DNA from: an uncultured Thermoanaerobaculia bacterium
GTDB taxonomy: Bacteria > Acidobacteriota > Thermoanaerobaculia > Multivoradales > JAGPDF01
DNA: 64,000 nucleotides
NCBI GenBank assembly: GCA_964471955.1
Contig: CAYYIK010000007.1
Span: 2,729 to 66,728 of the forward strand
Reading direction: 5' to 3'
A program made the translations under genes and the position numbers. Numbering within the stretch: position 1 is the first letter of the stretch; the number at the start of each line of letters is the position of its first letter. Of this stretch, positions 3,511-60,208 are shown in pieces. Under the pieces are notes generated by a model. It was not told the DNA's origin. It saw only the letters and a list, made by a program, of their open reading frames with translations, and made no database searches.

Positions 3511-3587
3511 GTGCACCCCCTCCACCACCTTCTACGCAGCCGCCTCCGCCGGGTTCCAGCCGGCGGGCGGGCGGCGGGAGACCGGCC

Positions 3588-7590: not shown

Positions 7591-9219
7591 TCAATTCGCC
7601 GCCACCTCCGACCAGCGCAGCAGGTCGCCACGCTCGAAGCCGTCGCGGAAGAGACCCAGCGCGTAGAAGACGTTCACGGCGCCGGCGTTCTCGACCGCTC
7701 CGGCGTCCTCGTCCGGCGCGCCGACGGCGAGATCTTCGAACCCGTTGCCGTCGAAGTCGCCGGCGGCGAGGGCGGTGCCGAGCCGGTCCCCCGCCTCGGG
7801 AGTGCCGGGAGCCGTGCCGGCCTGGTTGAGCTCTACGTGGAACAGCGGCGCGCCCGCGGCCCGGCCGGTGAACGCGAAGGCGGAACCGGCGGCGTTCTGC
7901 CCGGCGACGTCGACGCCGTATCCGCCGACGACGAGGTCCGCCGTGGGGCCGGCATCGAATCTCCCGGCCGCCACCGCGGATCCGAAGTGATCGAAGCCGG
8001 CCGGCGAGCTTCCGGTGTCGGTTCGCTGGATCTTCCAGGCGAAGGTCGGCTCGAGGCCGCCGCCGGCGCCGCGCAGGACGTGGACCGATCCGGCGCTCGG
8101 CACGATGGCGGGCGCCTCGATGTCCTCGTAGAGCGAGCCCACCGCGAGGTCGTCCCGGCCGTCGCCGTTGAAATCCGCCGCCACCAGAGAGAAGCCGAAC
8201 CAGTCCTCGGCCTCCACCTCGGCCGGCACCGCCTGGCTCTGGGTGACGAAGCGCGCGCGGCTCGCACTCAGGCCGAGGCCGGTTCCGAAGATCACGGACA
8301 CGGCGCCGGCGTCCTCGAGGACGCCGATGTCCTCGCGCGGCGAAGCCACCGCCAGGTCGTCGTGCCCGTCGCCATCGAAGTCGCCCGCCGCGAGCCGCCA
8401 ACCGAAGCCGTCACCGGCCTCCTCGATCGACAGGTTGAGGTCCGCCTGGACCCAGATCTGGTCCGCCACCGGCGCGAAGTCGGGCGACAGGCCCGACGGC
8501 GACCCGTAGAGGACGTTGACGGCCCCCGAGTCGGCGACCGCACCGACGTCCTCGCCCGGTACGCCGATGGCAAGGTCGACGAAAGCGTCGCCGTTGAAGT
8601 TGCCCGCCGCCAGGGAGCGGCCGAATCCGTCCTCCGACTCGGCGACTCCCGCGACGCCCCCGGCGCCCTGGTGCCAGAGCTGGCTGCCGGCGGCGGTGAT
8701 CCCGGAGAGACCGCCGTGGAGCACCAGCACGGCGCCCCCGCTGTACGCCGTGCCGCCGGAACCGGGGACGTTGCGCCCGGGGATCCCCACCGCGAGGTCG
8801 TCGAAGCCGTCGTCGTCGAAGTCTCCGGCCACCAGCGCCGTGCCGGCCAGGTCCTCCCACTCGCTCGGACCGTGGGCGGTCCAGTCGATCGCCCACGTCT
8901 CCGACCCGCTCGGGTCGAGACCCGAGGCCAGCCCGTAGACGACCGTGACCTGCCCCCCCATCGAAGCCCCGGCCAGGACGGTCTCGCCCGGGGCCGCGAT
9001 CGCCAGGTCGTCGAAGCCGTCGCCGTTGAAGTCTCCGACCGCGAGCTCCCGCCCGAACAGATCGCCGGCCTCCGCGCCGTCCGGAACGCCACCCGCCCCC
9101 TGTTCCAGAATCTGTGCCCCGGCCAGCCCGAGCTGCGCGTGAATCGACGTGGAAAAGGCGAGCGCGCCCGCCAGCGAGAGGACGGCCGCCGGCCGCCCGA
9201 TCGATCGATCGAAACCCAT
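7591..9219 (-). CDS. Secreted FG-GAP/integrin-alpha-like repeat protein carrying the C-terminal GFExGD-W tag
   Basis: The start at ATG 9219 is preceded by AAGGGGGA (SD); the track ORF extends to 9315. Signal peptide MGFDRSIGRPAAVLSLAGALAFSTSIHAQ. There are at least 7 repeats of the type GDFNGDGFDDLAIAAPGE. The protein ends LFRDGFERGDLLRWSEVAAN. Confidence 0.88.
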   Translation of the reverse strand: MGFDRSIGRPAAVLSLAGALAFSTSIHAQLGLAGAQILEQGAGGVPDGAEAGDLFGRELAVGDFNGDGFDDLAIAAPGETVLAGASMGGQVTVVYGLASGLDPSGSETWAIDWTAHGPSEWEDLAGTALVAGDFDDDGFDDLAVGIPGRNVPGSGGTAYSGGAVLVLHGGLSGITAAGSQLWHQGAGGVAGVAESEDGFGRSLAAGNFNGDAFVDLAIGVPGEDVGAVADSGAVNVLYGSPSGLSPDFAPVADQIWVQADLNLSIEEAGDGFGWRLAAGDFDGDGHDDLAVASPREDIGVLEDAGAVSVIFGTGLGLSASRARFVTQSQAVPAEVEAEDWFGFSLVAADFNGDGRDDLAVGSLYEDIEAPAIVPSAGSVHVLRGAGGGLEPTFAWKIQRTDTGSSPAGFDHFGSAVAAGRFDAGPTADLVVGGYGVDVAGQNAAGSAFAFTGRAAGAPLFHVELNQAGTAPGTPEAGDRLGTALAAGDFDGNGFEDLAVGAPDEDAGAVENAGAVNVFYALGLFRDGFERGDLLRWSEVAAN

Positions 9220-15246: not shown

Positions 15247-15996
15247 TCAGGGAAGCGAGCCCGACCAGTGCGTGGTATCTCCGGTCTCGAAACCGTCGGC
15301 GAAGATGTCCGCCGTGCAGTAGAGAATCCGCACGTCGTCGAGATACCAGCCCATCCGGTTGACCACCGTGGTGGCGTGCAGCCTGAATTCGATGTCGATC
15401 GCAGGCATGCCGGCGAACGCGGAGAGATCCACCAGCTGCAGCTGCCAGTCGGGCGTCGGCGTGGCGTCCGGCACGAAGTACTGGCTCACCCCTTCGACGA
15501 AGACGTCGGCGCGATCGAAGGTCATGAAGACCTCGTACCAGTGGGCCCATTCGAGCGCGATCGGCGCCTGCAACGTGCTGAAGTCGAAGCTCTGCGACAG
15601 CGAGCTGTCCTGGCCGCTGTTCTGGTAGCAGCCGTCGAGATTCGTCCCCATGACGGCCGCGCCGTTGTACACCCCGGAGGGCTCGGGGCGCGGCGTGGTG
15701 TCGCACAGCTCGTAGACGCCCGTCGTCACCCCGCCGCGCTCCCAGTCGCCGAATCCGCTCTCGACCCAGCCCCCTTCGTCGACTTCGAAATCGGCGGCGT
15801 GGAACTCCGCGACACCCGTGCCCGGCGGGCAGACCATCCCCACCCCGTTCGCCAGGGCCGCCGGGGCGGCGGGTGACCGCCGGGCGCGCTGGTCGGCGAT
15901 CATCTCCTCGATCGGTGAGTCGGCGGCCAGAGGGAGCGGCAGCAATGCCGCCAGACAGAGGGGTGCGATCCACTTCGCGTTGCGAAAAGTGACCAT
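15247..15996 (-). CDS. Secreted hypothetical protein carrying the C-terminal GFExGD-W tag
   Basis: 249 aa. Signal peptide MVTFRNAKWIAPLCLAALLPLPLAA. The body looks like a jelly-roll fold (GWYLDDVRI). The protein ends IFADGFETGDTTHWSGSLP. Confidence 0.75.
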   Translation of the reverse strand: MVTFRNAKWIAPLCLAALLPLPLAADSPIEEMIADQRARRSPAAPAALANGVGMVCPPGTGVAEFHAADFEVDEGGWVESGFGDWERGGVTTGVYELCDTTPRPEPSGVYNGAAVMGTNLDGCYQNSGQDSSLSQSFDFSTLQAPIALEWAHWYEVFMTFDRADVFVEGVSQYFVPDATPTPDWQLQLVDLSAFAGMPAIDIEFRLHATTVVNRMGWYLDDVRILYCTADIFADGFETGDTTHWSGSLP

Positions 15997-21723: not shown

Positions 21724-21724
21724 C

Positions 21725-21768
21725 GGGTGGGTCGCCGGCGCCCATGTTAGCGCCGGAGCGACCCACCC
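21725..21768 (-). terminator. Strong GC-rich hairpin between the S8 peptidase stop and the ECF sigma start (terminator/attenuator or translational-control candidate)
   Basis: An 11-bp stem (21725-21735 with 21758-21768), a 2-nt bulge, a 6-bp stem (21736-21741 with 21750-21755) and an 8-nt loop. On the minus strand, the arm nearest the start codon ends 1 nt before ATG 21723. Confidence 0.45.
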
Positions 21769-21782
21769 GCGGATGTCCTGCG

Positions 21783-24599
21783 TCACAGGGCGGTGGCCGA
21801 CCACTCCAGCAGATCGCCGCCTTCGAAGTCGTCCGAGAAGAGCGATGCCGGCAGGACGATCACCTGGAAGGAGACCGCGCCACCGGTGAGATTCGCCACT
21901 ACCAGGCCGAGCCAGTCACCGAGAGCCGCGGGATTGTTCAGGCCCCCCCGCTCGGTCGCGGTCCCGGAGCTGGAACGGTTGCGCGCCAGCACGTACTCGC
22001 TCTTGCGCTTCGTCCAGCTGGCGGAGTTCGCCGGATCGGAGCGGTATCCGTAGATGGCGAGGTCGGCGCTGCCGCTCACCGGGACGACGCGGACACGGCG
22101 ATGGCTCGCCGCCGGAACCCAGACGTCGAAGACCGAGAGGACGTTCGCGGCTGCGTGCGTCACCGGCCCGAGCGTGATCGGTGAGCTGGAGCTTCCGGCT
22201 CCCAGGCCGAGGTTGGTGAACTGCAGATTGTAGCCATCCGTGCCCGCGAACCGGTAGACGCGGTAGTGCTCCTGGGTCGTCGTCCGGTGATTGCCGTCCA
22301 CCGCGACGAAGTCGATGGCGCTGCCGGCGTAGGTCGACGTCTCGTTGACCGTCCGCACGCCGGGGTTGACGAACAGCGAGTGACTGGCGAGCTCGAGGTC
22401 GTGATCCGAGGTTCCCGCCGGACGGATTCCAACGGCGCGCCAGTAGTTGTTCGGCGACCAGTCGGCCGGAAAGACCGCGAGGTGGGTGCCCGTCGGCGCG
22501 GGCACCTGATCGGTATAGCCGACCTCGGGCACGATCCGGTACTCGCCGCGCCACCAGCCGGCGCCGAGCCAGGTGCCGCCCGAGCTCCAGTCGGACGAGA
22601 AGAGCGAGGCGCGGAAGCGGTAGGTCTCCGAGGCTGGAGCGATGAAGTCGATGATCTCGTAGGCGTTGCGGACGCTCGACGAGCAGGTGATCACCGTCGT
22701 GTTGTCGGCGCGATAGGCGCACAGGTCGATGTCGGCCGGCAGCGGGTCCGTGGTGTAGGCCGCGTTGGGGTTGGTCGACCAGGCGATGGCGAAGCGCACC
22801 CGCTCGCCCGCGTAGGCGTACTGCGAGTAGTTGATGGGGAACGTCGTCGTCGAACCGATGGACTGGACCGCCCAGTTGCCGCGCTCGGCCGAGGCCGCCG
22901 CCGCCGCGCCGACGATGCCACCCGCGCCGTCCTTGTCCGAAAGGCGCGTCGCCCCTTCGACGTTGTGGATCGCCGTCGCCATCAGCAGCGCTTTGACCGC
23001 CTCCGGGTCGTTCTCGATCGCCGGGTCGACTTCCATCACGTCGGCGGCGAGCGCCGTGACCATCGGTGCCGAGTAGCTGGTGCCGCTGCCGACGGGGCCG
23101 ATCCAGGGGCTGGAGGTCGTCGTGCTGGTGATCGAGGAGCCGACGCCGGCGATTTCGGGCTTCTCCTGCGTCCCGGTGCCGGCCGAGTTGTTCGGGTTGC
23201 CGAAGCTCGAGCAGTTCGACATCACGTCGCCGGTCCACGTCAGGCTGTCGAGGTCGTCGTAGTTGCCGACCGCCAGGATGTTGTGCCCCTTGGCGGGCGA
23301 GGTGACGTAGGTCGAGAAGTTGCCGCCGCACCCGTTGCCGAAGTTGCCCGCCGCAACGACCACCGTGTCGAAGTGGGAGCGCACGAAATAGTCCATCTGC
23401 CGATCGACACTCCAGAAGTTCGGGTTGTTGGCGCTGTCCCAGTACCAGCTGTTGTTGAGCACGCGGGCGTTGGACGACCCCCACTCCATCGCCGCCGACA
23501 TGACGCCGAAATCGGAGTAGCTGCCGTTGGCGCTGTGCAGGTCGACTTCGTCCGCCAGGCCGTGCTGCGTCGCGTCGGTGCTGCGCACCATGCCGCCCAC
23601 GGCGGTCGGATGGCTGGCGTAGGGCTGTCCGCAGGCGTAGCAGGCGGAGAGGGTGAGGAACGGATTGGCGAACGAGGCGCGCTCCCCCTCGGTGATCGAC
23701 ACCTCGACGCCCGTGCCGTCGTAGCCCACGTTGTTGGGCACCAGCATGTTCTGCGTCGGGCGCGCGTTGGCGAGCAGCGGGCCGCCCTGCCCCGAAGCGT
23801 CGTAGAGCGCGTCGATCTCGGGCCAGAAGGCGAGTTCCTCGAGGACCTCCCGGCGCCCTTCGAGCACGACGAGCGGGGAGAGCTCGCCGGCGAACGTGAT
23901 GTCGAGGTCGAGCGCCGTCACGCGGCCGAGGAAGTCGGCGCGCGCCGGCGCGATGAGCTCGCGGATCAGTCGCTGGCGCTCGGCGTCCTCGGCGCGCAGG
24001 GCCGCCTGGACCGCTTCGCGGTGCGCCTCGCGGCGCGGATCGACGATACGAAGATCGCCCGGCTCACCCTTGGAGAGCTCGGGGGCGGCGTCGGCGCGGG
24101 TCACCGGAGCGTCCGGATCCGGCTCGGCGGCCTCGCCCAGCGCGCTGCCGGCCTCGCGGCCGGTCGGCTTCGGAGCGAGTCGCTCGTCCGGCAGGGCCGA
24201 CAGGTCGACGGCGAGCCAGGCCGTGACGCGCAGGCGATCCGCCGGGCCGAGCTGGTCGAGGTGCCGGCGCAGGTCCGGGGTAACGGCGCCGTGGCGGGCC
24301 CGCCAGGCGTCTCCCGCCCGCCGGATCTCGGCGTAGCGGTCGACCACCCGCTCGCCGTCGAGCGCCACGCCGACGATCTCGCCGGTTGCCCGGTCGATCG
24401 CCTTGACGGTCTCGATCCGGCGGCCGTCGGCCAGCGTGTCGACGGTCGTCTCGATCTTCTCGATCGAGTCGGGATCCAGGCCCAGGGCGGCCGCCAGGCG
24501 ATCGCCGGCATCCTCCGCCCGGACGGGAGCCGCCAGGGGGAGCGCCCCCAGCAGCAATGAGGTGAGCAGTGCGGTTCTGATTCGACCGGAATTTCGCAT
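21783..24599 (-). CDS. Secreted subtilisin-like (S8 family) serine peptidase with long N- and C-terminal extensions and the C-terminal GFExGD-W tag
   Basis: 938 aa. SD GAGGAGGAATCG precedes the ATG. Signal peptide MRNSGRIRTALLTSLLLGALPLAAPVRA. Serine motif GTSYSAPMVTALAADV, His region ASHPTAVGG, and AAGNFGNG. The protein ends LFSDDFEGGDLLEWSATAL. The catalytic Asp could not be placed by eye. Confidence 0.78.
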   Translation of the reverse strand: MRNSGRIRTALLTSLLLGALPLAAPVRAEDAGDRLAAALGLDPDSIEKIETTVDTLADGRRIETVKAIDRATGEIVGVALDGERVVDRYAEIRRAGDAWRARHGAVTPDLRRHLDQLGPADRLRVTAWLAVDLSALPDERLAPKPTGREAGSALGEAAEPDPDAPVTRADAAPELSKGEPGDLRIVDPRREAHREAVQAALRAEDAERQRLIRELIAPARADFLGRVTALDLDITFAGELSPLVVLEGRREVLEELAFWPEIDALYDASGQGGPLLANARPTQNMLVPNNVGYDGTGVEVSITEGERASFANPFLTLSACYACGQPYASHPTAVGGMVRSTDATQHGLADEVDLHSANGSYSDFGVMSAAMEWGSSNARVLNNSWYWDSANNPNFWSVDRQMDYFVRSHFDTVVVAAGNFGNGCGGNFSTYVTSPAKGHNILAVGNYDDLDSLTWTGDVMSNCSSFGNPNNSAGTGTQEKPEIAGVGSSITSTTTSSPWIGPVGSGTSYSAPMVTALAADVMEVDPAIENDPEAVKALLMATAIHNVEGATRLSDKDGAGGIVGAAAAASAERGNWAVQSIGSTTTFPINYSQYAYAGERVRFAIAWSTNPNAAYTTDPLPADIDLCAYRADNTTVITCSSSVRNAYEIIDFIAPASETYRFRASLFSSDWSSGGTWLGAGWWRGEYRIVPEVGYTDQVPAPTGTHLAVFPADWSPNNYWRAVGIRPAGTSDHDLELASHSLFVNPGVRTVNETSTYAGSAIDFVAVDGNHRTTTQEHYRVYRFAGTDGYNLQFTNLGLGAGSSSSPITLGPVTHAAANVLSVFDVWVPAASHRRVRVVPVSGSADLAIYGYRSDPANSASWTKRKSEYVLARNRSSSGTATERGGLNNPAALGDWLGLVVANLTGGAVSFQVIVLPASLFSDDFEGGDLLEWSATAL

Positions 24600-49787: not shown

Positions 49788-50309
49788 TCAGGTCCGCGGC
49801 GGGAAGACGCCCTGCAAGGCGATCGCGAAGTAGCACGTCAGGTACGGCTGCATGTTGTTGTGCGGCTGGTCGCCGCCGCCAGGAGCCAGGGCCTGGTCCG
49901 ACGCGCTCGCGTTCGGAGACGCCTGATACAGAGCTCCTCCGCCGGAGAGTGCGAAGGACGCAGAGGCGCTCGCAACATTGGTGTCGGCCAGGTCGACGAC
50001 GTTGGCGCGCAGAGTGTGGGAATGCGCGGGAATCTCCGATTGAAGGAGCGAAACCGTCTCGCTGCCTCCCGTCTCCCCCAGGTCGTGCAGGGACAATCCC
50101 GGGCCTTGTCCCGGCTGCATCGGTGCGCGACCCTGAAGGTCCGGCAGTGCGAAGTTGCTCTTGCCGTTGCCTCCGTATGTCGTGCCGAGCAGCGAAAAGA
50201 GCGCCGTATTCTGCGACAGGGGAAGAAGCTGCCCGTCGCACCACGCCCAGCCCTTCGGGGCGAAGTTGAACGGGAAGATCCGGATCTCAGCGACGAAGGG
50301 ATCTGCCAT
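49788..50309 (-). CDS. Phage tail-collar domain protein (MdpB/COG4675-like), paralogue 3
   Basis: 173 aa: MADPFVAEIRIFPFNFAPKGWAWCDGQLLPLSQNTALFSLLGTTYGGNGKSNFALPDLQGRAP...QPYLTCYFAIALQGVFPPRT. Confidence 0.9.
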   Translation of the reverse strand: MADPFVAEIRIFPFNFAPKGWAWCDGQLLPLSQNTALFSLLGTTYGGNGKSNFALPDLQGRAPMQPGQGPGLSLHDLGETGGSETVSLLQSEIPAHSHTLRANVVDLADTNVASASASFALSGGGALYQASPNASASDQALAPGGGDQPHNNMQPYLTCYFAIALQGVFPPRT

Positions 50310-50321
50310 GACGTCTCACTC

Positions 50322-50825
50322 TCAGGCCGGGCTCGGGAAGATTCCGAACAACGAAATGATGAAATTGACGCAGAGATAGGGCTGGAAGTTCGTGTGCGGC
50401 TGGCTGCCGCCCGTCGACCCGATCGCCGCAGCATTCATGTTTCCGCTCGGAGCGTCGTTGATGTACGGGGTGACGTTGAAGGAGTTCGCCGGGAGATTGC
50501 CCGAAGCGTTGATCTGGTCCCCGGTAACTCCGGCGGCGAGCAGCGGATGGCCGTGCGCCGGAATCTGCTGAATCGTGAGCGTGATCTCCTCCGCGCCTCC
50601 GGTCTCCGCGAGGATGAATCCGCTCCCCTGATGAATCGGAATCCGCCCGCGCAGGTCGGGCAGCGCGAAGGTGGACTGCCCGTCGCCTCCGTAGGTGGTG
50701 CCGATCAACTGGAACAACGTCTCGTTCTCCGAGATCGGCAGCAGCTGACCCTCGCACAGCATCCAGCCTGCCGGCGCGAAGTTTCCGCCGAACATCCGGA
50801 TCTCTCCAACGTAAGGTTGCGCCAC
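50322..50825 (-). CDS. Phage tail-collar domain protein, paralogue 2
   Basis: 167 aa. The GTG start is preceded by GAGGAGG, which overlaps the upstream stop. MAQPYVGEIRMFGGNFAPAGWMLCEGQLLPISENETLFQLIGTTYGGDGQSTFALPDLRGRIP...QPYLCVNFIISLFGIFPSPA. Confidence 0.9.
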   Translation of the reverse strand: MAQPYVGEIRMFGGNFAPAGWMLCEGQLLPISENETLFQLIGTTYGGDGQSTFALPDLRGRIPIHQGSGFILAETGGAEEITLTIQQIPAHGHPLLAAGVTGDQINASGNLPANSFNVTPYINDAPSGNMNAAAIGSTGGSQPHTNFQPYLCVNFIISLFGIFPSPA

Positions 50826-50835
50826 GACGGCCTCC

Positions 50836-51336
50836 TCAGTTCGGGCTCGGGAAAATGCCCTGGAGGGCGATACAGAAGCTGATCGTGAGGAACGGCTGCA
50901 TGTTCAGATGCGCCTGGCTTCCTCCGACGGCGGTCACGGTGGCGGAGCTCATGGCGACCAGGGATGCCGGCGCGTGGTAAGCGTTGTTGGCCCCTCCGAG
51001 GACCCTTCCCGCCGGATTCACGTTGCCGCCGGTCGAGGCCGAGGAGACCGCCAGCACATGCACGTGTTGCGGCATCTCCGCGATCGACAAGGTGTGGGCC
51101 TGCTCTCCCCCGCGCTCACCGAGCGTGTGCGCCGATCCGACGTGAATCGGGGCGCGCCCGCGCAGGTCGGGCAGCGCGAAATTGACGCGGCCGTCGCCGC
51201 CGAAGGTCGTTCCCAGGAGAGAAAACAGGGCCTGGTTCTGATTGATCGGCAACAGCTGGCCGTTGCAGAGGGCCCAACCCTTGGGAGCGAACTGGAAGCT
51301 GAACAGTCGAACTTCGCTCAGGAACGGTTCGGCCAT
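50836..51336 (-). CDS. Phage tail-collar domain protein, paralogue 1
   Basis: 166 aa with SD GAGAGGAAG. MAEPFLSEVRLFSFQFAPKGWALCNGQLLPINQNQALFSLLGTTFGGDGRVNFALPDLRGRAP...QPFLTISFCIALQGIFPSPN. Confidence 0.9.
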   Translation of the reverse strand: MAEPFLSEVRLFSFQFAPKGWALCNGQLLPINQNQALFSLLGTTFGGDGRVNFALPDLRGRAPIHVGSAHTLGERGGEQAHTLSIAEMPQHVHVLAVSSASTGGNVNPAGRVLGGANNAYHAPASLVAMSSATVTAVGGSQAHLNMQPFLTISFCIALQGIFPSPN

Positions 51337-51372: not shown

Positions 51373-54300
51373 TCACGGCAGCGGGCAGGCAGCGCCGCCC
51401 GGGGTATTGACGAAACCGCCGCCCGTAGGCACGGTATTCGACGCGATCGCCGAGGGCACTCCGTCTCCCGAGTTCCGCGCGATCAGGTAGTTCTGGACCG
51501 CGGTGTTGTCGTTGTTGGCGCCCGCGTATCCGCGCAGCGCAACGGTCGTCGCCTGCCGCTGGCGGAGTCGGATGTCTTCGCCTCCCGCCGGAATGTCGCT
51601 GGGCGCGCCCGCGGTCGAAACCGAGTTCTGGAGAGCCCCGGCTCCGCCCGCGTCGAGGCAGATCTGGTAGGTGTCTCCGGGCACTGTGCCGGCGTTCAGG
51701 TGAATCCCGTTCTTCGGGATCGAAGCGGTGGCCGGATTGGTACCCGGAAGCGTGATCAGATTGCCCGTGATCGTGGCGTTCAGGGCGCCGGGCTGCGCCG
51801 TCGCCCCGCCGCCAGTCAGCAGCTCGATGCCGAAGTTGTTGTACCAGCGGATCGTGTTGCCGCTGATCAGCGCGTCGATCGCCCCCTGGCCGACGCTCTG
51901 GATTTTGAGCGCCGATCCCTCCAGCGATCCGGAGTTGGGCGTCGCGGCCGCGCCGATCGTATTTCCCTGGAACGTCAGATCGAGGCTGCCCACGCCGGTC
52001 GGCTTGACGATCAACACCGCCGGCCCGACCGCGTCGCGGAAGCTGTTGTTCTGAACGACGAACGTGTCCGAGCTCGTGGCGCCGGCGAAGAAGGAAACTC
52101 CACCGCCGCCCGTCGCGATTCCGCCGTGGTTGTTGCTCAGCGTATTGCCCGTGAAGGCGAAGGTGAAGGCGCCGTTCGAGTTGTTGTTGACCTGGATCAG
52201 GTCGCCACGGGCGGACGTGAAGGCTCCATTCTGGACGGTGACGTTCATCGTCGCGCCAGCCGAACCGAGAGTCTCGAAGTAGGCCCCGTCGTTGCCGTCG
52301 GACAGGCTGTTGGCGCCGATCGTGACCCCGGAGAGAGTCACCGTGAGCGCTCCAGCGGTGTTGACGATCCTGAGATTGTCTTCGAAACCGCCGCTCACGT
52401 TGCAGTTCGTGAAGGTCGCCGTACCGGTCAGCTCGCTGAACCGGATACTCCCCTCGTCCGCCGCGGCGCTGTTGCCGTTGACGCCGTTGACGACGCTGTT
52501 GTCGAGGTTGAAACCCGTGACGGAAGCGCCGCGAATCGCGAAGTCGCCGAAGTCGTCGAGCTGCATCCAGGAGAACGACGGGTTCAGCGTGCTGGTGAGC
52601 GAGATACCGGTGCTCGTCGCGTTCCGAATCGTGCCGCCGGTCGCGGCCGAGCCCGTTCCGGAGACGATGAGCCTGCCTGCACCTCCCGTCGCATTGAGGA
52701 TCAGGCCGTTGGCCGGATCAGCAGCGGCCGTCGCATTTCCCGAGCTGATCGACCGGAAGCTCAGGTTCGAGGTCCCGATCGGCGTGCTGGTCACCCGCAA
52801 TGCGGTCGCGCTGACCGAGTCGATGGTGTTGATTCCGGTGATGTTCAAACCGAGCGCGTTGGTGTTGCTGGTCGCCGCGAAGCCCTCGCCGGTGGTGGTG
52901 TCGATGTCGAGTCCGCCGCTGAAGGTGATCGCCCGGCTGCCGGCGTTGCCGTTGAGCAGGATGCCGGCGCCGTTCTCGTCGACGGCGCCCGAGAGCAGCA
53001 AGTCGTCGCTCGCGTCGTCTCCGGCCCAGGTCGTGATCGAGACGGCTCGCGCCGTCGCCGAGTTGTTGGTGATCGTCCCGGCGTAGTTGATGCGGCCGTT
53101 GCCACCGCTGACGTTGAAAGCGGGTCCGGCCGCTCCCGCCGCGGTCGTGATCGTGCTGCCGGCGCCGGCGGTGAACTGGGCGTCGAAAGCCGGATTGATC
53201 GCGTCGAGCACCGTCGCCAGCGAGACGCCCGTCGTCGTCGTGTTCGTGCTCCGAATCGTGGTCAGCGGCAGCGAGGCGGTCAGGTTGGAAAGGTCGACCG
53301 CCGGACCGCCCGTCGCTTCCGCCATCCCCACGCCCGCGCCCACCGACACGCGCGTACCCGTTCCCGCACCGACGTTCACGGCGCCGGTGCCGCTGACGCG
53401 GATCGCGGCGCCGTTGTCGGCGAAGACGTCGAGGTCGGTGAAGGCGAGGTCGCCCGAGACGTTGGTCAGAACCAGACCGCTCGCGCCGACGCCGTTGCCC
53501 GGCGCGCCGACCACCGTGGCGCCGCCCGCGACCTGCTGATAGGCGCCTCCCGGCGTGGCGTCGAGCGTCAACGGACCCGTGAGCACCAGGCCCGAGCCGC
53601 CGGTGTTGCCGGAGACCACGTTGTCGTCGAAGGCCGTGACCTGAACGGTGCCGTTGGTCCTCGCCACGTCGAGGCCGGTGCCGCCGGCGGTGATGCTGTT
53701 GTCGTGGATCGAGAGCGTCAGCGTCCCGGTGCCGCCGGCGTTGACGTCGATCCCCTCGGCACCGGAGGCACGCACGGTGTTGTTCGCGATCGTCAAAGCG
53801 CCCGACCCGCCGAAGGCGCCGGTGAGCGTGACGTCGACGGCGTTCGCGTTGCCGGCCAGATTCAGGCCGACGATCTCGGTCGGGATCAGATCGGTGGCCA
53901 TCACCGCGCTGCCGCCGACCGTGGTGTTGTCGAGCATCGGCCGGGTACCCGGTGCGATCAGCACGACGGGCGAGGCACCGCCGTTCAGCACGACCGGGAT
54001 CGAGAGCCCCGCCCCTTCGCCCACCAGATGCTGACCCGCCTTGAGCGTGATGCCGGCGTTCTGCCCGGTGGTGGCGCCGTCGCCGTTGTAGACGAAGATC
54101 CAGTCGTTGGCACCCGAGGCGGTCTGCGCTTCGACCAGGGTGTCGAATGGATCGATCGAACGTCCGAGACCGCCGGCGGTCGCGTCGTTGCGGACGTACC
54201 AGACCCGCTGGAGGAACGAAATCGTCACCGTGCCCTGGACGCTCACGTCGCCGTCGGAGACGTTGTACGTGAAGCTGTCGTCGACCGTTCGCCCGGCCGG

Positions 54301-56514
54301 CGACGTGTAGCTGAACGTGCCGTCCGAGGCGACCGCGACCACCGCGCCGGCGGTCGCCGTACCGAGCGACGTGGTCAACGCCGCCGGGCCGTCCGGATCG
54401 CTGTCGTTGGCGAGCAGGTTCCCCGCCGCGAAGACGTAGGGACCGTTCGCGTCCGGCCCGGGATCGATTGCCGCGACCCGCAGCCGGGTGTTCGAAATCG
54501 TCTGGAACGACTCGCCGGTGATCACCGGAGGATCGTTGACCGGCGTAACGGTGACGCTCTTCGACGCCGTGTTGCTCGGATCGGCGCCGTCGTTCGCGAC
54601 GAAGGTGACGAGGCGGTCCGGCAGGGCCGTCGGGCTCTGGGAAGCGTTGGCGTAGAGGACCGAGCGCAGGCAGCCCTGGTAGACCGCGACCGTCGCCGTT
54701 CCCGAGATCGCCAGCGCGTGGCCCGGCGCGGAGACGACGAGGCCCGGGCAGGTTGTGCCCGGCGCAGCGACCGAGAGCGCCTCCTGGCCGCCGTTCTGCG
54801 GATTCGTCAGCGACACGATCGCCGAGACGAGATCCGCGTCGTCGGCGTCGGTGACGTTCAGCGCACCGTCGACCACCACCGCGCCGGCGTCTTCGACGAA
54901 CGAGGTCGCGCCGCCGCTGGTTGTGACCACCGGTACATCGTTGACCGCGGTGATCTCGACCGTCGACGTCGCGGCGGCGCTCGACTCGACGCCGTCGCTC
55001 GCGCTCCAGGTTACCGTGCGGTCGGACGGGTCGGGATCCTCCGAGCTGTTCTCGTAGGCGACCGAGCGCAGCGCCGCCTGCCAGGCAGCGACGGTATCGA
55101 GTCCGTTCAGGGCGAGGGTGCCGGTCGCCGGCGCGAAGACGCCGGTGATGCTGGGCGTGTTCGTGAACGACAGGACGTCTTCCCCGCTCTGGAAGTTGCC
55201 GGTGATCTGCACCGTCGCCGAGACCAGATTGGCGCTGTCGACGTCGCTGACCGTGAGCGCGGCGTCGACCGCGGTCGGCGGATCGTTCTCGGTGTAGGCG
55301 AGCGTGCCGCCGGCGACGACGACCGGCGGCGCGCGGTCGATCACGATCCGGGCGCGGGCCGTGGCCGGGCCGATCGGCGCGCCCGAGGCGTCCACCGTCG
55401 GGTCTCCCGCCGCCGCGGCGATCGTGTAGGCGAAGTCGTCGACGCCGTTGAAGCCGGCCGGCGGCGTGTAGACGAAGTGCCCGTCGGCGGCGACGTCGAC
55501 GCTGCCCCCCTGGCTGGTTGCCTGCCCCGCCGCCGGCACCGCGGCGAGCGAGTCGCCGTCCGGATCGGTGTCGTTGCCGAGCAGCGCGGGCAGCGCCGCC
55601 GTCGAGCTGTCGATCGGCTGGTCGGTGACCGTCCGGTAGACGTCGGGTCGTGCCAGCGGCGTCGTGCGCACCGAACCGGCGACCAGCGCCAGATTGGAGT
55701 CGAGGATGTCCGCGAGCTCGACGCCCGTGGCGCCGCCACCGGCGTTCGAGATCGTGATCCGGTAGCGAATGGTGTCTCCCGGCACGACCGCGCCGGGAAT
55801 CGGATCCCCGGCCGGCGTGCGGTCGACCTTGAGCGCCGCGAGTTCGGGAGCCGCCGTGCGCAGCTCCGAGAGCATCAGCGCCGGCGTCGCTTCCCCCGAC
55901 TCGACGCGAAGGACGATCGCGCCCACCGCGGAGAGATCCGCCGGCGTCGCCGCGCCGGGCGCCTGCGCCAGGCTCGAGAAGTCGACGAAGATGTCGACGG
56001 GAGCCGCGATCGCCGGCAGGACCAGGGCGCCGCGCGACACCGAATCGGCGTCCTCGTAGATCTCGAGCACCAGGGAGGTGCCCGCCGCCGCCGCGTCGAT
56101 GGTGAAACGGAAGGCGCCCGCGCCGCCGGCGGTCAGGTCGACGCCGCCCAGCCCGGCCGGGTCGATCGCGTCGGGGTCGCTGTCGCCGTCCCAGATCACG
56201 AAGACCGCACCGCGCGAGTCGGGCGTGGTCGCGGTGACGCCGACGTCCAGCGCGCCGCCCGCCACGCCGGCGGTGACCGGCCCCGCTCCGGCGAAGCGTT
56301 GCACCCGCAGTCCGCGGTTCTGACCGAGGATGTCGGCGCCGCCGGTGACCGCGTTGCTGGCGCCGCCGGGCGGATCCGAGATCACGGTCTGGTTGGTCGT
56401 GAACTGATCGACGACGACCTGGCCGGCGACCGGTGCGGCGGCCAGGACCAGTCCGGCGACGAGTGCGGCGAGCGCGGCGGGCCGTCGCGGCGAGGGTCTC
56501 ATGGCGCCTCTCAT
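51373..56514 (-). CDS. Giant secreted protein (1713 aa): unknown N-terminal domain, DUF11-like and cadherin/VCBS-like modules, then a long right-handed parallel beta-helix region
   Basis: The ATG overlaps the upstream stop (ATGA). Signal peptide RRPAALAALVAGLVLAAAPVAG. Modules seen: GDTIRYRITISNAGGGATGVELADIL (DUF11-like); NDTDPDGDSLAAV...GFNGVDDFAYTI (cadherin/VCBS-like); repeated ...VSDVDS.NLVSATV.I...AL.SV.Y.N... modules; and many Gly/Asn/Thr-rich beta-helix turns (NNTVRASGAEGIDVNAGGTGTLTLSIHDNSITAGGTGLDV). Confidence 0.85.
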   Translation of the reverse strand: MRGAMRPSPRRPAALAALVAGLVLAAAPVAGQVVVDQFTTNQTVISDPPGGASNAVTGGADILGQNRGLRVQRFAGAGPVTAGVAGGALDVGVTATTPDSRGAVFVIWDGDSDPDAIDPAGLGGVDLTAGGAGAFRFTIDAAAAGTSLVLEIYEDADSVSRGALVLPAIAAPVDIFVDFSSLAQAPGAATPADLSAVGAIVLRVESGEATPALMLSELRTAAPELAALKVDRTPAGDPIPGAVVPGDTIRYRITISNAGGGATGVELADILDSNLALVAGSVRTTPLARPDVYRTVTDQPIDSSTAALPALLGNDTDPDGDSLAAVPAAGQATSQGGSVDVAADGHFVYTPPAGFNGVDDFAYTIAAAAGDPTVDASGAPIGPATARARIVIDRAPPVVVAGGTLAYTENDPPTAVDAALTVSDVDSANLVSATVQITGNFQSGEDVLSFTNTPSITGVFAPATGTLALNGLDTVAAWQAALRSVAYENSSEDPDPSDRTVTWSASDGVESSAAATSTVEITAVNDVPVVTTSGGATSFVEDAGAVVVDGALNVTDADDADLVSAIVSLTNPQNGGQEALSVAAPGTTCPGLVVSAPGHALAISGTATVAVYQGCLRSVLYANASQSPTALPDRLVTFVANDGADPSNTASKSVTVTPVNDPPVITGESFQTISNTRLRVAAIDPGPDANGPYVFAAGNLLANDSDPDGPAALTTSLGTATAGAVVAVASDGTFSYTSPAGRTVDDSFTYNVSDGDVSVQGTVTISFLQRVWYVRNDATAGGLGRSIDPFDTLVEAQTASGANDWIFVYNGDGATTGQNAGITLKAGQHLVGEGAGLSIPVVLNGGASPVVLIAPGTRPMLDNTTVGGSAVMATDLIPTEIVGLNLAGNANAVDVTLTGAFGGSGALTIANNTVRASGAEGIDVNAGGTGTLTLSIHDNSITAGGTGLDVARTNGTVQVTAFDDNVVSGNTGGSGLVLTGPLTLDATPGGAYQQVAGGATVVGAPGNGVGASGLVLTNVSGDLAFTDLDVFADNGAAIRVSGTGAVNVGAGTGTRVSVGAGVGMAEATGGPAVDLSNLTASLPLTTIRSTNTTTTGVSLATVLDAINPAFDAQFTAGAGSTITTAAGAAGPAFNVSGGNGRINYAGTITNNSATARAVSITTWAGDDASDDLLLSGAVDENGAGILLNGNAGSRAITFSGGLDIDTTTGEGFAATSNTNALGLNITGINTIDSVSATALRVTSTPIGTSNLSFRSISSGNATAAADPANGLILNATGGAGRLIVSGTGSAATGGTIRNATSTGISLTSTLNPSFSWMQLDDFGDFAIRGASVTGFNLDNSVVNGVNGNSAAADEGSIRFSELTGTATFTNCNVSGGFEDNLRIVNTAGALTVTLSGVTIGANSLSDGNDGAYFETLGSAGATMNVTVQNGAFTSARGDLIQVNNNSNGAFTFAFTGNTLSNNHGGIATGGGGVSFFAGATSSDTFVVQNNSFRDAVGPAVLIVKPTGVGSLDLTFQGNTIGAAATPNSGSLEGSALKIQSVGQGAIDALISGNTIRWYNNFGIELLTGGGATAQPGALNATITGNLITLPGTNPATASIPKNGIHLNAGTVPGDTYQICLDAGGAGALQNSVSTAGAPSDIPAGGEDIRLRQRQATTVALRGYAGANNDNTAVQNYLIARNSGDGVPSAIASNTVPTGGGFVNTPGGAACPLP

Positions 56515-59444
56515 GGCACGACGGCGCTCCAGCGCGAGGTATCGCCCGTCTCGAATCCGTCATTGAACAGCAGCGGCGAGGGCCGCACGTAGAGCTGATC
56601 GAAGTGCGCGGTAAACAGGGCGTCCGTGGTTGTCCTGGCCTCGATCGTCCAGCGAGCCGAGGCGGTGCCGGCGGGCGCCCGCTGCGGGTCGACCAGTTCG
56701 AGCCAGGCTCCGGCCGAGTCGAAGAACGGCTGGGCGACTTCGACCGAACCCGCCGTTCCCGTGCAGCCGGCGCCGGTGAAGTACTCGACGCGTCGCGCCA
56801 CGGTCACCGGCGTGCCGGCGCTGGCGGCGATCCGCACGCGGGTCACCAGCTCATAGTCGGCGGCGACCAGCGGCGTGCACTGGGCGACGGAGAATTCCGA
56901 CGGACCCTGCGGCGGGCCGAGCAGCGGATCGATCCGCAGCGCCCCCGAGACCGGCGCGTCGTCGAGGTCGACGGCCGGATCGTGGATCACGTCGCCGGTG
57001 CCCTCGGGCGTCGCCTGCCAGGCCCGCAGGTCGCAGTCGAAGTGGCCGTTGAGCAGGCGATTGCCCGCATCGATCCGGAATCCGAGCTCGTGCTCGTCGT
57101 CGCCCGAGGGGGTCGAATCGCCGTCGAGCGGGTTGCCCGCGACGTCCTCGAGCGTCGGGCAGACCAGCAGCCGGTAGGGGCGGTCGCCGAGCGCTTCGCC
57201 GAAGGTCACGGTCGCGACCGACGGAGAAGCCTGATAGACGACTGCGGTGGCGTCGATCGCCACGTCGTCGCCGGCCGGTGGCCCGCACAGCGCGGTCGAG
57301 AACGCGCCGTCGGGACCGGTCGCGAACAGCCGGTAGTTGTCCGGGTTGGTGACGTCCTCGGGGTCGGCGTCGCCGGCCGGATCGGCCATCTCCTCGCTGA
57401 ATTCGAGCGCGAGCGCGGTCGGCGTGGCGAGCACCGTGTCGCACTCCGCGATCTCGCCGTCGGGGCTCGCGGGGACCGAGTCGACGATCACGATCGTCGG
57501 TGCGGTGAGGTCGAGCGCCACCGTCTCGCAGTCGTCGTTGTCGCCCGGGACCGGGTCGGGCCCGTTCGAGCCGTCGTCGGCGATCGAAGCGCAGTTGTCG
57601 ATCTCGGTCGTGCCCGGCGGCAGCGGGTCGTCGAGCTCGACGGCGAAGACGGCGATGCCCGCGCCGCCACCGCCATCGAGAGATCCGATCGCCAGATCAC
57701 AGGCGGTGCCGGCGGGTGCACCGTCGGCGCACGACCAGCCGGCGGTCGAGGCCGCGGCGTCGAAGGTGGTGTCGACCGGCACCGTCTCGGACAGGACGAC
57801 GCCGACAGCCGTCTGGTTGCCGGCGTTCGAATAGGCGAGATCGAAGGCGATCGTGTCACCCGGGAACGGCACGCCGCCCGAATAGCTCTTGACAATCGCC
57901 AGGTCCGGCGCGGCTTCGATCGGCGTGGAGTCCTCGGCGCCGTTGTCGCCCGGGTTCGGGTCGGCACCGTTGGCGCCGTCGTCGGCCACGCTGGCGACGT
58001 TGACCACCTCGCTGACGCCGGCGGGCAGCGGCGTCTCGACTTCGACGGCGAACGTCGTCGAGCCGCTCCCCCCGCCCGCCACCGCACCTACCGCGTACGT
58101 GCAGGCGGTGCCCTCGGGCGAGCCGTCCGGGCACGACCAGCCGGGCGTCGAAGCCGCGGCGTCGAAGACCGTGAACGGCGGCACGAGCTCCGACAGTACG
58201 ACGCCGGTCGCCCCCTGGTTGCCGCCGTTCGACCAACCAAGCGCGTACGGGATCGTGGAACCAGGAGTCGACGTGATCCCGCCGTCACTCTTGGTCAGCG
58301 CGAGGTCCGGCTGGGCGTCGACAGGCGTGGTGTCCGAGGCCGAGTTGTCGCCGGGATTCGGATCGGCGCCGTTGACGCCGTCGTCGGCGATCGAGGCCGT
58401 GTTGGCGATCTCGGTGACGCCGGCGGGGACCGGATTCGCGACGGTAACCGCGAAGGTCGCCGAGCCCGAGGCGCCGCCGCCGACGAGCGAACCGACCGCG
58501 AGCGTGCAGACCGCGCCCGGATTGCCGTCGGGGACGCACAGCCAGCCGGCCGTCGACGCGCCCGGGGCGAAGACCGCGTTGGCCGGAACGGTCTCGCTGA
58601 GCGTCACGCCGGTCGCCTCCTGATTGCCGTCGTTGGCGTAGGAGAGGACGTAGGCGACGGTCGCGCCCGGGACCGCCGAGATTCCGCCGTCGCTCTTGGC
58701 CAGGGTCAGGTCGGGCGCGGCGTCGACCGGAGTGGTGTCGGTCGAGCTGTTGTCGGCCGGCGTCGGGTCGGCGCCGTTGGCACCGTCGTCGGCGATCGTC
58801 GCCGTGTTCGAGATCTCGTCGAGCCCCGCCGGCACCGGCGAGTCCACAGTGACCGCGAAGGTCGCCGAACCCGCAGCGCCGCCGCCGGCGAGCCCGCCGA
58901 CCGTCAAGTTGCAGACCGACCCCGGGTTGGCGTCCGGAACGCAGATCCAGCCCGCGGTCGAGGCGCCGGCGTCGAAGGTGGTGCTCGCGGGCACCACTTC
59001 GCTCAGCGTCACGCCGCTCGCCGCCTGGTCGCCGTCGTTGGCGTAGGCGAGCAGGTAGGCGACGGTTCCGCCCGGAACGACCGAAACGCCGCCGTCGCTC
59101 TTGGCCAGGCTGAGATCCGGCTGGGCAACGACCGGTGTGAGGGTCGGGTCCTGGGCGCCCGGCTCGCCGGGATCGTCCGTGAGCAGCGTGGCGGCGTTGG
59201 TCGCCTGGATGGTCGCCTGATTGGTCACCTCGACGACTCCGGCCGGCAGCGGCGTGTCGACGGTCACCAGGAACTCGATGGTGACCGCGCTGCCTGCCGG
59301 CAGGATGCCGATCGACGTGTCCTGCGCCCACGCGGTCGCGGCGGCGCCGAAGGCCGCGCCTGCGATCAGCCATCTGCGAAGCCACGCGTGCCGCGAAACC
59401 AACCGCTCGCTCCTTCCGTCGACGACGGGATGCGGACGCAGCAT
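56511..59444 (-). CDS. Secreted DUF11-repeat protein (4 full and 1 partial repeat of about 133 aa) with an Ig-like and a CenC/CBM4_9-like domain and the C-terminal GFExGD-W tag
   Basis: ATG 59444 is preceded by GGAG; the track ORF starts at TTG 59468. Signal WLRRWLIAGAAFGAAATAWAQD. Repeats read PDL.LAKSDGG......G.TVAY.L.YAN.G.Q.A.GV.LSE.VP, each with two Cys. Then NGHFDCDLRAWQ (CBM-like). The protein ends LFNDGFETGDTSRWSAVVP. Confidence 0.88.
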   Translation of the reverse strand: MLRPHPVVDGRSERLVSRHAWLRRWLIAGAAFGAAATAWAQDTSIGILPAGSAVTIEFLVTVDTPLPAGVVEVTNQATIQATNAATLLTDDPGEPGAQDPTLTPVVAQPDLSLAKSDGGVSVVPGGTVAYLLAYANDGDQAASGVTLSEVVPASTTFDAGASTAGWICVPDANPGSVCNLTVGGLAGGGAAGSATFAVTVDSPVPAGLDEISNTATIADDGANGADPTPADNSSTDTTPVDAAPDLTLAKSDGGISAVPGATVAYVLSYANDGNQEATGVTLSETVPANAVFAPGASTAGWLCVPDGNPGAVCTLAVGSLVGGGASGSATFAVTVANPVPAGVTEIANTASIADDGVNGADPNPGDNSASDTTPVDAQPDLALTKSDGGITSTPGSTIPYALGWSNGGNQGATGVVLSELVPPFTVFDAAASTPGWSCPDGSPEGTACTYAVGAVAGGGSGSTTFAVEVETPLPAGVSEVVNVASVADDGANGADPNPGDNGAEDSTPIEAAPDLAIVKSYSGGVPFPGDTIAFDLAYSNAGNQTAVGVVLSETVPVDTTFDAAASTAGWSCADGAPAGTACDLAIGSLDGGGGAGIAVFAVELDDPLPPGTTEIDNCASIADDGSNGPDPVPGDNDDCETVALDLTAPTIVIVDSVPASPDGEIAECDTVLATPTALALEFSEEMADPAGDADPEDVTNPDNYRLFATGPDGAFSTALCGPPAGDDVAIDATAVVYQASPSVATVTFGEALGDRPYRLLVCPTLEDVAGNPLDGDSTPSGDDEHELGFRIDAGNRLLNGHFDCDLRAWQATPEGTGDVIHDPAVDLDDAPVSGALRIDPLLGPPQGPSEFSVAQCTPLVAADYELVTRVRIAASAGTPVTVARRVEYFTGAGCTGTAGSVEVAQPFFDSAGAWLELVDPQRAPAGTASARWTIEARTTTDALFTAHFDQLYVRPSPLLFNDGFETGDTSRWSAVVP

Positions 59445-59503
59445 AGAGACTCCGCAGGCGCGATACAAGCGTCACGCGACGGTTTCGTCGTGGCGCGCGC
59501 GGC

Positions 59504-59532
59504 TTGACGTGCGGAGAGCGACGCCGTACGGT
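59504..59532 (+). promoter_or_regulatory. Candidate sigma70-type promoter for the 59573 gene
   Basis: TTGACG (59504-59509), a 17-nt spacer, then TACGGT (59527-59532), about 40 nt upstream of ATG 59573 (SD GGAAGGGAG). Confidence 0.3.
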
Positions 59533-59572
59533 TGCCGCCGCCGCTGGGCGCGGCAACGCTGTGGAAGGGAGC

Positions 59573-60208
59573 ATGATGCCTACCGGAAGAGTCCTCAGTC
59601 TCCTCGTCGCCGGGCTGCTCGCCGCCGGGCAGCTGCGCGCCGCCGAGCTGCTGCCCAACGGTCGATTCGACGACCCGGGAACGGGAACCGCCGGCTGGGT
59701 GGCAGTCGATCCGTTCTCGAACCTCGCCTGGGACGGTAGCCGCGACGCCGATGGTTGCGCCGGCTCCGGCTCCGCCGCCCTGACCAACAGCGCCACTACT
59801 TCCGATGCCGGGGCGCGCTTCGCCAGCTGCGCCGCCGCGGTCCCCGGCGCCACGGATTACGGCTTCGGCGCCTCGATCCTCTTCCCGATGCAGGAGCGCG
59901 AGGGCTCGGCCTCCGTCGCCGTCCACTGGATCGAGGGTACGGGGTGTGCCGGCGCCGTGCTCGGCACTTCGAACACCCCCCCCGCGCTGTCGTCGATCGA
60001 AGAGGTGTGGATCTCCCTCGCCGGCACGGCGACGGCGCCGGCGGCGACCGGCAGCGCGCTGATCGTGGTAACCCTGACCAAGAAGGTCGGCGGCTCCGAA
60101 CTCACGGCGCGGCTCGACGAGGTGGCGCTGCGGCCGCCCGGCGAGATCTTCGGCGAGGGCTTCGAGGTTGGCGCCGTCTGTCGCTGGACCGCCGCTGCGA
60201 CCGACTGA
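59573..60208 (+). CDS. Small secreted CenC/CBM4_9-like protein with a variant of the C-terminal tag
   Basis: ATG 59573 within the track ORF 59504..60208; 211 aa. Signal peptide MMPTGRVLSLLVAGLLAAGQLRA. AELLPNGRFDDPGTGTAGW is a CBM-like start. The protein ends IFGEGFEVGAVCRWTAAATD. Confidence 0.8.
   Translation: MMPTGRVLSLLVAGLLAAGQLRAAELLPNGRFDDPGTGTAGWVAVDPFSNLAWDGSRDADGCAGSGSAALTNSATTSDAGARFASCAAAVPGATDYGFGASILFPMQEREGSASVAVHWIEGTGCAGAVLGTSNTPPALSSIEEVWISLAGTATAPAATGSALIVVTLTKKVGGSELTARLDEVALRPPGEIFGEGFEVGAVCRWTAAATD

Follow-up and report, generated by a model that had tools for sequence, protein, structure and literature searches.

A C-terminal tail shared by unrelated exported proteins of Acidobacteriota: a probable, undescribed tag derived from the first strand of a jelly roll

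Short C-terminal signals such as LPXTG and PEP-CTERM, and the C-terminal domain of the type IX secretion system (T9SS), have each opened the way to a machinery of their own, and surface proteomes are predicted from them. To our knowledge, the C-terminal sorting signals listed in the literature all use a membrane helix. In this paper we describe a tail of about 20 residues, with the overall consensus [LIV]-F-x-D-G-F-E-[ST]-G-D-T-S-x-W-S-x-[TV]-V-P-COOH, which closes five unrelated exported proteins encoded in a 64-kb stretch of DNA from an uncultured Thermoanaerobaculia bacterium (contig CAYYIK010000007.1, positions 2,729 to 66,728; the whole stretch is called the window below). The tail is undescribed and is probably a C-terminal tag. 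Neither Pfam-A (2025) nor NCBIfam r20 (June 2026) has a model that matches it, for full proteins as well as tails alone and at E values up to 10, and the suggestion in a preliminary description of this DNA that the motif is not one of the named sorting signals is supported. Our own 20-position profile gives 42.3 bits for the tail of window gene D, so that a dedicated model would have been detected. A sequence search of the PDB with the consensus tail returned chance-level HasA matches only (E about 0.2), and in the literature we found no description of the motif or of such a signal in Acidobacteriota.

The tripartite signals (LPXTG, PEP-CTERM, IPTL-CTERM, GlyGly-CTERM and MYXO-CTERM) are like the tail in being short C-terminal regions on unrelated signal-peptide proteins, and in being restricted to certain lineages. 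PEP-CTERM and IPTL-like signals even occupy the same junction in homologues of window protein B as the tail does in B itself. However, tripartite signals have a signature motif followed by a transmembrane helix and a basic cluster, whereas the tail has neither helix nor basic cluster, is acidic and ends in Pro; it cannot be the usual substrate of an intramembrane or membrane-embedded sortase. The preliminary description had already remarked on the missing hydrophobic helix and basic end, and in the window tails, as in the consensus of 69 genome tails, the Trp is indeed followed by 5-6 mostly polar residues. The tripartite signals have cognate enzymes (sortase, exosortase, rhombosortase, myxosortase), whereas none is known for the tail. 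The T9SS C-terminal domain (Por_Secre_tail, TIGR04183/PF18962) has no membrane helix either, and it shares with the tail its types of cargo, namely Sec-exported proteases, glycosidases, peptidyl-arginine deiminase and adhesins. But it is a folded beta-sandwich of 70-100 residues found in Bacteroidota, while the tail, far shorter as had been pointed out, has about 20 residues, belongs to Acidobacteriota and does not match TIGR04183/PF18962 even at E<=10. Proteins with a type I secretion signal have no Sec peptide and usually carry RTX upstream of the signal, whereas the carriers in the window have Sec peptides and no RTX domains.

The five carrier genes, A to E, and their tails are listed below in the order of the window, with the scores of the tails against the tail profile.

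7591..9219, minus strand: gene A, exported FG-GAP protein with six FG-GAP repeats; signal peptide MGFDRSIGRPAAVLSLAGALAFSTSIHAQ; tail carrier
7594..7656, minus strand: tail of A, GLFRDGFERGDLLRWSEVAAN then stop; 22.0 bits
15247..15996, minus strand: gene B, exported MAM/InhA-like jelly-roll protein of 249 aa; signal peptide; tail carrier
15250..15309, minus strand: tail of B, DIFADGFETGDTTHWSGSLP then stop; 33.3 bits
21783..24599, minus strand: gene C, exported subtilisin-family (S8) peptidase of 938 aa; signal peptide MRNSGRIRTALLTSLLLGALPLAAPVRAED; tail carrier
21786..21845, minus strand: tail of C, SLFSDDFEGGDLLEWSATAL then stop; 10.3 bits
56511..59444, minus strand: gene D, exported DUF11 (PF01345) repeat protein of 977 aa with four DUF11 repeats; tail carrier
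56514..56573, minus strand: tail of D, LLFNDGFETGDTSRWSAVVP then stop; canonical form, 42.3 bits against the profile from other genomes
59573..60208, plus strand: gene E, small exported all-beta protein of 211 aa; diverged tail
60143..60205, plus strand: tail of E, EIFGEGFEVGAVCRWTAAATD then stop; -0.8 bits against the canonical profile; a diverged form that has an invariant Cys

Genes D and E, their divergent layout and both of their C-termini are exactly as first described. The open reading frame (ORF) of D spans 56511-59468(-), and the public gene call starts it at 59444, which gives 977 aa; the ORF of E spans 59504-60208(+), with a public start at 59573 that is probably real and gives 211 aa. 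About 128 bp lie between the two genes. D begins with a Sec-type signal peptide (MLRPHP...AAATAWAQD) and ends in ...PLLFNDGFETGDTSRWSAVVP, and E, also with a Sec-type signal peptide, ends in ...GEIFGEGFEVGAVCRWTAAATD. Both are real carriers, but the preliminary description had seen these two only, and the window holds five. They were found with the regular expression [LIV]F-x-[DE]-[DG]-F-E-x-G-x4-W-[ST], applied to all six frames of the whole 64 kb. All five matches lie 4-6 residues before a stop and none is internal, the three beyond D and E being at 7609-7653(-), 15262-15306(-) and 21798-21842(-). The same expression gave no match in 200 first-order Markov simulations of the window. Signal peptides are present on all five carriers, whose architectures are mutually unrelated. 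Their tails end in V-P, A-L, A-A-N or A-T-D and have a negative net charge. The E tail, with its score of -0.8 bits, is a diverged variant peculiar to its family, and the D/E pair is thus not the best example in the window.

The carrier genes are not part of a dedicated island. They are dispersed over 64 kb of ordinary chromosome, among housekeeping genes such as plsX-fabD-fabG-fabF, ETF-QO and xanthine dehydrogenase, genes for M16, M1 and S9 peptidases and a glycosyltransferase cluster.

Genomes and the viral contigs of IMG/VR were scanned with a degenerate DNA pattern, back-translated from F-x-D-G-F-E-x-G-D-x3-W, which is blind to gene calls. The scan of species-representative genomes found at least 120 loci with at least 136 copies; the counts given here are of the matches listed, and taxon proportions are those of this sample. 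For 105 of the 132 genome copies with a stop inside the locus, that stop lies within 10 codons of the Trp, and 69 of the 132 have exactly five residues between the two. The consensus of these 69 is x-[LI]-F-A-D-G-F-E-S-G-D-T-S-A-W-S-x-T-V-P, with the end WS-x-[TV]-V-P-stop. Their last residue is Pro in 58 cases, and the terminal Pro is retained even when the stop comes 7-8 residues after the Trp. This distinguishes the tail, which sits on soluble-domain carriers, from the outer-membrane beta-signal, which has an aromatic last residue (usually Phe or Trp) and closes a beta-barrel. The tails have a net charge of -3 to -4, with a D-x-x-E-x-x-D spacing. Upstream of them the open frames usually run to several hundred codons, the longest to about 1,900, except for copies near a locus edge. 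The distance from Trp to stop is sharply bimodal: 0-16 or at least 33 residues in the genomes, and 1-6 or at least 58 in viral contigs.

The taxonomic distribution differs between the two forms. Among the matches listed, the loci with a C-terminal tail are almost all from metagenome-assembled genomes (MAGs) of Acidobacteriota, namely Thermoanaerobaculia, Holophagae, Ca. Multivoradales and Ca. Sulfomarinibacteraceae; the others are a few Myxococcota/'Deltaproteobacteria' and one Pirellulaceae MAG. A tail-rich MAG is represented, for example, by the 4.5-Mb contig JAXLQW010000001.1. The copies that continue into further sequence come mostly from Chloroflexi, Actinobacteria, archaea and phages, with a minority from Acidobacteriota. 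For Acanthopleuribacter, the matches listed include a domain-start copy only (L178). On IMG/VR contigs, 11 of 44 copies end within 6 residues and the other 33 run on for 58-700 residues. Many of the viral copies stand at the N-terminus of phage proteins of about 310 aa that start M-A-R-I-F-I-D-G-F-E-S-G-D-L-x-L-W-D, a family seen on L002, L012, L022, L026, L027, L033, L048, L051 and L053; the two of these proteins that were tested (from L002 and L026) have no Pfam match.

It might be thought that the tails are premature stops, caused by assembly errors in MAGs, frameshifts or gene calling. All carriers found do come from metagenome assemblies, one locus (L001, reached from P0001) looks frameshift-ridden, and behind a few genome copies there are 33-49 residues that resemble junk and look like the result of lost stops, which suggests occasional errors. 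Nevertheless, an artefact of this kind is effectively refuted. Tails are found at over 100 independent loci, in the output of many assemblers and in short-read as well as long-read projects, and nothing jelly-roll-like follows the tails in any frame of the window. Identical E protein (P0211) is found on 14-18 independent public contigs from different samples. All three stop codons are used after the tail (TGA 52, TAG 41 and TAA 12 in the 105 genome copies listed), which excludes recoding, and the stop of D is overlapped by the start of the next gene, itself with a signal peptide, so that D is not read through. Recoding and read-through were rejected on the same grounds, including the missing downstream jelly-roll frame. 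A hidden membrane anchor behind the tail was rejected as well, as the 33-49-residue extensions show no hydrophobic helix.

The C-terminal form is a distinct, lineage-restricted and promiscuous module on exported proteins. The 58 tail proteins from the genome loci carry 37 Pfam families, including FG-GAP, the S8, C1 and M14 peptidases, BNR, beta-helix, PAD_porph, GH8 and cytochrome c7. BLAST clustering splits the tail proteins into many small families with unrelated domains before the tail, and a universal pre-tail domain, with the tail as part of a larger tag, was ruled out for this reason. The CenC/CBM4_9-like domain that had been placed directly before the tail finds little backing, with no Pfam or NCBIfam match in the last 180 residues of D or in E; the equivalent domain of B is a jelly roll of the MAM/InhA-like or CBM type. 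By contrast, the proposed association with export is borne out not only by the five window carriers but at many genome loci: by a heuristic, of which a looser version was also run, 63-69% of tail ORFs have signal-peptide-like N-termini, compared with 31-38% of neighbouring coding ORFs (p about 1e-6). Conservation is far higher in the tail than in the linker or where the domain before it ends. At some C-termini the tail is duplicated in tandem, at a distance of about 20-25 residues (P0185, P0101, P0093, P0125, P0127 and P0128, and further in P0131, P0179 and P0184), and it is also found as isolated units between Pro/Thr-rich linkers inside large proteins (P0130, P0154). At one locus in a Ca. 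Multivoradales MAG (L168, 213-3112 and beyond), a tail closes every one of three paralogues in tandem, and the two complete ones cluster with the FG-GAP family of window protein A, so carrier genes expand locally.

A fixed extreme C-terminal end suggests that a free C-terminus is recognised, and many carriers are proteases, which commonly have removable C-terminal extensions. The tail could thus be a propeptide or degradation signal that a periplasmic C-terminal protease or chaperone removes, controlling maturation or turnover and not location. We regard this as improbable. PDZ-type recognition of C-termini, as by Tsp/Prc and DegS, normally needs a hydrophobic last residue, and the Pro end of the tail is unlike it. 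Furthermore, many carriers are not enzymes (adhesin-like repeats, cytochromes), and the internal and tandem copies would be difficult to explain.

In the family of window protein B the tail is interchangeable with known sorting signals. The nearest relative of B is P0042 (90% identical), with KAB2962279.1 ('Thermoanaerobaculia bacterium') in the same cluster; the exact B sequence, with the start codon as chosen, had no match among public contigs. B homologues have the domain end ...NRMGWYLDD-x-I-x-x-C in common, and their sequences part after it. What follows this junction is a complete tail in 2 proteins and a truncated one in 1, a transmembrane helix with an Arg cluster in 14, some with an IPTL signature, PEP-CTERM in 3, and a T9SS-type C-terminal domain in 1 (P0066). 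Foldseek groups the body of B with the MAM domains of InhA and meprin and with CBM35/22/4/11.

The motif itself is not confined to C-termini, and the copies that continue open ConA-like domains. They match Polysacc_lyase (PF14099) from profile position 1 with 39 bits, which is above the cut-off, and more weakly CBM_4_9 (PF02018, from position 2), Laminin_G_3 (PF13385) and 3-keto-disaccharide hydrolase. The tail alone gives a faint match to positions 5-22 of NTTRR-F1 (NF033675), and the whole NTTRR-F1 domain is present in one tail carrier. In tandem motif arrays the median spacing is 249 residues, and typically about 200-290. When 167 tails are compared column by column with 153 domain-opening copies, the two are the same at positions 1-11 and 13-15. 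The likeness to the first strand of ConA/LamG/CBM4_9-like jelly rolls, which had been noticed in D and E, is therefore one of the same sequence. The differences lie at position 12, which is Thr in 65% of tails and Leu or Phe in 72% of domain starts, and at positions 18-20, where tails have T-V-P and domain starts vary. Thus the ConA-like jelly roll shares its N-terminal strand F-x-D-x-F-E-x-G-x(4)-W with the tail, but it has a core-facing Leu or Phe where the tail has Thr, and it continues for about 130-250 residues after the first strand, whereas the tail lacks the remaining 150-250 or so residues and has the T-V-P-COOH end and a stop 0-10 residues past the Trp. The tail is therefore an exapted and slightly remodelled orphan first strand, with its turn, of a ConA-like jelly roll. 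In a Fimbriimonas MAG (L093), two paralogues (3416-4162 and 4389-5135) have a signal peptide and a jelly roll opened by the motif, and the paralogue tested (3416-4162) also ends in PEP-CTERM; in other phyla the full motif-opened domain therefore coexists with classical sorting tags.

A hidden Markov model scan of 1.84 billion representative proteins gave 3,830 matches at E<=0.001, domain-start copies included. The copies were classified in the best 150 of these 3,830 matches, a ranking that favours proteins with several copies:

motif copies in the best 150 library matches: 243 in total, of which internal 184, N-terminal 14, C-terminal 45
single-copy proteins in the best 150 library matches: C-terminal 28, internal 19, N-terminal 3

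A profile of the five window tails was also run against an index of 5.8 billion proteins; its matches are biased to fragments of 25-76 aa, and we used them for the consensus and not for position statistics. The preliminary description had considered that a motif equally often found inside proteins would speak against a tag. It is indeed common internally and N-terminally across taxa, which tells in part against a tag, yet the distance to the stop is bimodal. What stands of the tag interpretation is a distinct C-terminal form on exported proteins; what does not is that the motif as such would belong to C-termini. The specific function, be it secretion tag, anchor, cleavage site or donor strand, is something we infer.

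The reading we favour, with moderate confidence, is that the tail is a self-contained, modular sorting or docking tag, recognised in trans, on Sec-exported proteins of Acidobacteriota, and that it was exapted from the first strand of a jelly roll. It would apply mainly to Thermoanaerobaculia and Holophagae. A carrier would be exported by Sec with its tail staying unpacked from its own protein, and one shared partner would recognise the tail in trans, most simply by beta-strand augmentation. The partner might keep the cargo at the surface or in the matrix, or pass it to an export step at the outer membrane, and the tail would thus do for its carriers what PEP-CTERM, IPTL-type anchors or the T9SS domain do for homologues in other lineages. 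Many carboxypeptidases cleave poorly at a C-terminal Pro, and the conserved terminal Pro would shield an exposed tail from them. The idea of a tag survives the wide occurrence of the motif because of the bimodal stop distance, the concentration in Acidobacteriota, the signature of its own and the interchange with known signals in one family.

The main rival is a structural leftover or cap: a strand retained from a truncated jelly roll, which pairs with the edge of the preceding domain and has no sorting role. We think it rather unlikely, but several of our observations weigh against the favoured tag or fit the leftover. Thousands of proteins use the identical motif as an ordinary strand of their structure. 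Where it opens ConA-like domains (PF14099 at 39 bits, weakly CBM_4_9 and Laminin_G_3), it is indistinguishable from the tail at positions 1-11 and 13-15, and a structural role, with no signalling, keeps part of its probability. Most carriers are beta-rich. Two homologues of B (P0062 and P0065) end in a second, unrelated orphan first strand, VPVELLDASVE / IPVELMEFSVGEEDVR, which shows that simple truncation after a first strand does occur, and recurs. The evidence for the exchange of tags comes from the B family only, and neighbourhood clustering of the 120 genome loci listed gave no conserved partner gene; no receptor or processing enzyme came to light either. On the side of the tag, AlphaFold2 (32 sequences) models the jelly-roll body of B at pLDDT 80-96 and residues 236-249 below 50, with no tail strand, from which the tail would seem not to be part of the preceding fold, although this result rests on about four tail-bearing rows of the alignment. 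The mature proteins of the E family have exactly four invariant Cys, one of them in the tail, which suggests a disulfide to the body and hence intramolecular packing. In P0066 the second orphan strand opens the next domain, ahead of the T9SS-type C-terminal domain.

For other features of the tail a leftover is a poor explanation. The tail follows unrelated folds (beta-propeller, subtilisin with accessory domains, DUF11 Ig-like repeats, beta-helix, cytochromes), and AlphaFold2 does not dock it on B. Its conservation is far above that of the linker and the preceding domain end, it has a fixed end with a conserved terminal Pro, and it occurs in tandem duplicates and between flexible linkers. Nor would separate truncations arrive together at Thr12 and T-V-P-stop in one phylum.

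The diverged tail of E is conserved as ELFGDDLEVGAVCRWSAATTE in six homologues; the E family is P0211-P0217. E itself has no Pfam or NCBIfam match, and its AlphaFold2 model (7 sequences) is poor, with a mean pLDDT of 56.7.

Another possibility is that the tail binds directly. An acidic, aromatic peptide (D, E, D, two Phe and one Trp) could hold enzymes at the envelope or in the matrix with no need of a receptor protein, by binding Ca2+ and thereby, or directly, the cell's own lipopolysaccharide or exopolysaccharide (EPS). The net charge of -3 to -4 and the D-x-x-E-x-x-D spacing would suit such a role, tandem duplication would raise avidity as it does for low-affinity modules, the parent fold is that of lectins and CBMs, and there is a glycosyltransferase/EPS cluster in the window, which is not specifically linked to the tail genes. 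But a single lectin strand does not carry a sugar-binding site, no known Ca2+-binding consensus is matched, and the very strict conservation fits a protein-protein interface better than contact with a polymer. We give this explanation little credence.

If the favoured tag does act through a partner, two kinds of known system may indicate how. Dockerins are, like the tail, small acidic C-terminal modules, sometimes duplicated, on varied secreted enzymes, and they bind a jelly-roll cohesin non-covalently; no cohesin-like partner has been identified for the tail. The comparison is limited to the way of working. Dockerins are about 60-70 residues long and contain two helical, Ca2+-binding F-hand repeats, each of some 22 residues, whereas the tail is one unit of 20 residues, occasionally duplicated. 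There is no likeness in sequence or predicted structure, and no Pfam match of the tail to Dockerin_1 at E<=10. In donor-strand systems, such as the chaperone-usher and type V pili, TasA fibres and archaeal cannulae, a terminal strand completes the incomplete beta-sandwich of a partner; TasA, the archaeal cannulae and AbpX are jelly-roll subunits that donate a strand. Their subunits homopolymerise, whereas the tail strand sits on many unrelated cargoes, and we found no acceptor that lacks its first strand. These systems could serve as a precedent for a strand acting in trans, and by analogy only; they are no evidence for the tail.

We put forward, tentatively and with more doubt than confidence, that the tail might be a trans donor strand (a 'strand dockerin') for a ConA-like jelly roll without its first strand, or else the mark of a new outer-membrane export route. 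The acceptor would be a surface, matrix or outer-membrane protein, and the cargo would amount to dozens to hundreds of enzymes, adhesins and cytochromes. A strand dockerin, if true, would mean a non-covalent, cellulosome-like display built on beta-strand complementation, and a new class of sorting signal with neither a membrane helix nor a folded domain.

Recurrent neighbours of the tail genes are only pairs of an ECF sigma factor (PF07638) and a Ser/Thr kinase-TPR protein, found within 8 kb at 16 of the 120 loci. We did not accept these as partners, because their order is inconsistent and there is no background frequency to compare them with. In the window, gene C is followed immediately by such a sigma factor (PF07638 type) and a Ser/Thr kinase (20048-21915(-)). 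The order tail gene, sigma factor, kinase is also found in L144, and further loci with such genes include L084, L089, L126 and L158. Among the annotated genes of the 64-kb window there is no sortase-like gene.

Among the exported proteases, glycosidases, adhesin-like proteins and cytochromes of Thermoanaerobaculia and Holophagae, groups that are abundant and mostly uncultured in soil, sediment and wastewater, a large share bear the tail. Current annotation leaves it unnamed; with a simple profile, thousands of proteins would be annotated as extracytoplasmic. It is furthermore a direct handle for finding the partner. Should this turn out to be a jelly roll that accepts strands, or an export component of a new kind, it would bring a new mechanism of surface display and a compact tag of 20 residues for engineering. 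If it is a tag, the tail is also a clean example of a structural strand exapted into a signal.

Two further groups of genes in the window may be mentioned. Three tandem genes of about 170 aa each with phage-tail-collar domains (PF07484) lie at 49788-51336(-), just downstream of a gene for a 1713-aa Big_9/cadherin-like protein (51373-56514) whose start overlaps the stop of D. The trio, the Big_9/cadherin-like gene and D look like one surface-protein operon. Between 32812 and 41189 there are four GT4 glycosyltransferases and an undecaprenyl-phosphate sugar transferase (Bac_transf), which together look like an exopolysaccharide or O-antigen-type locus.

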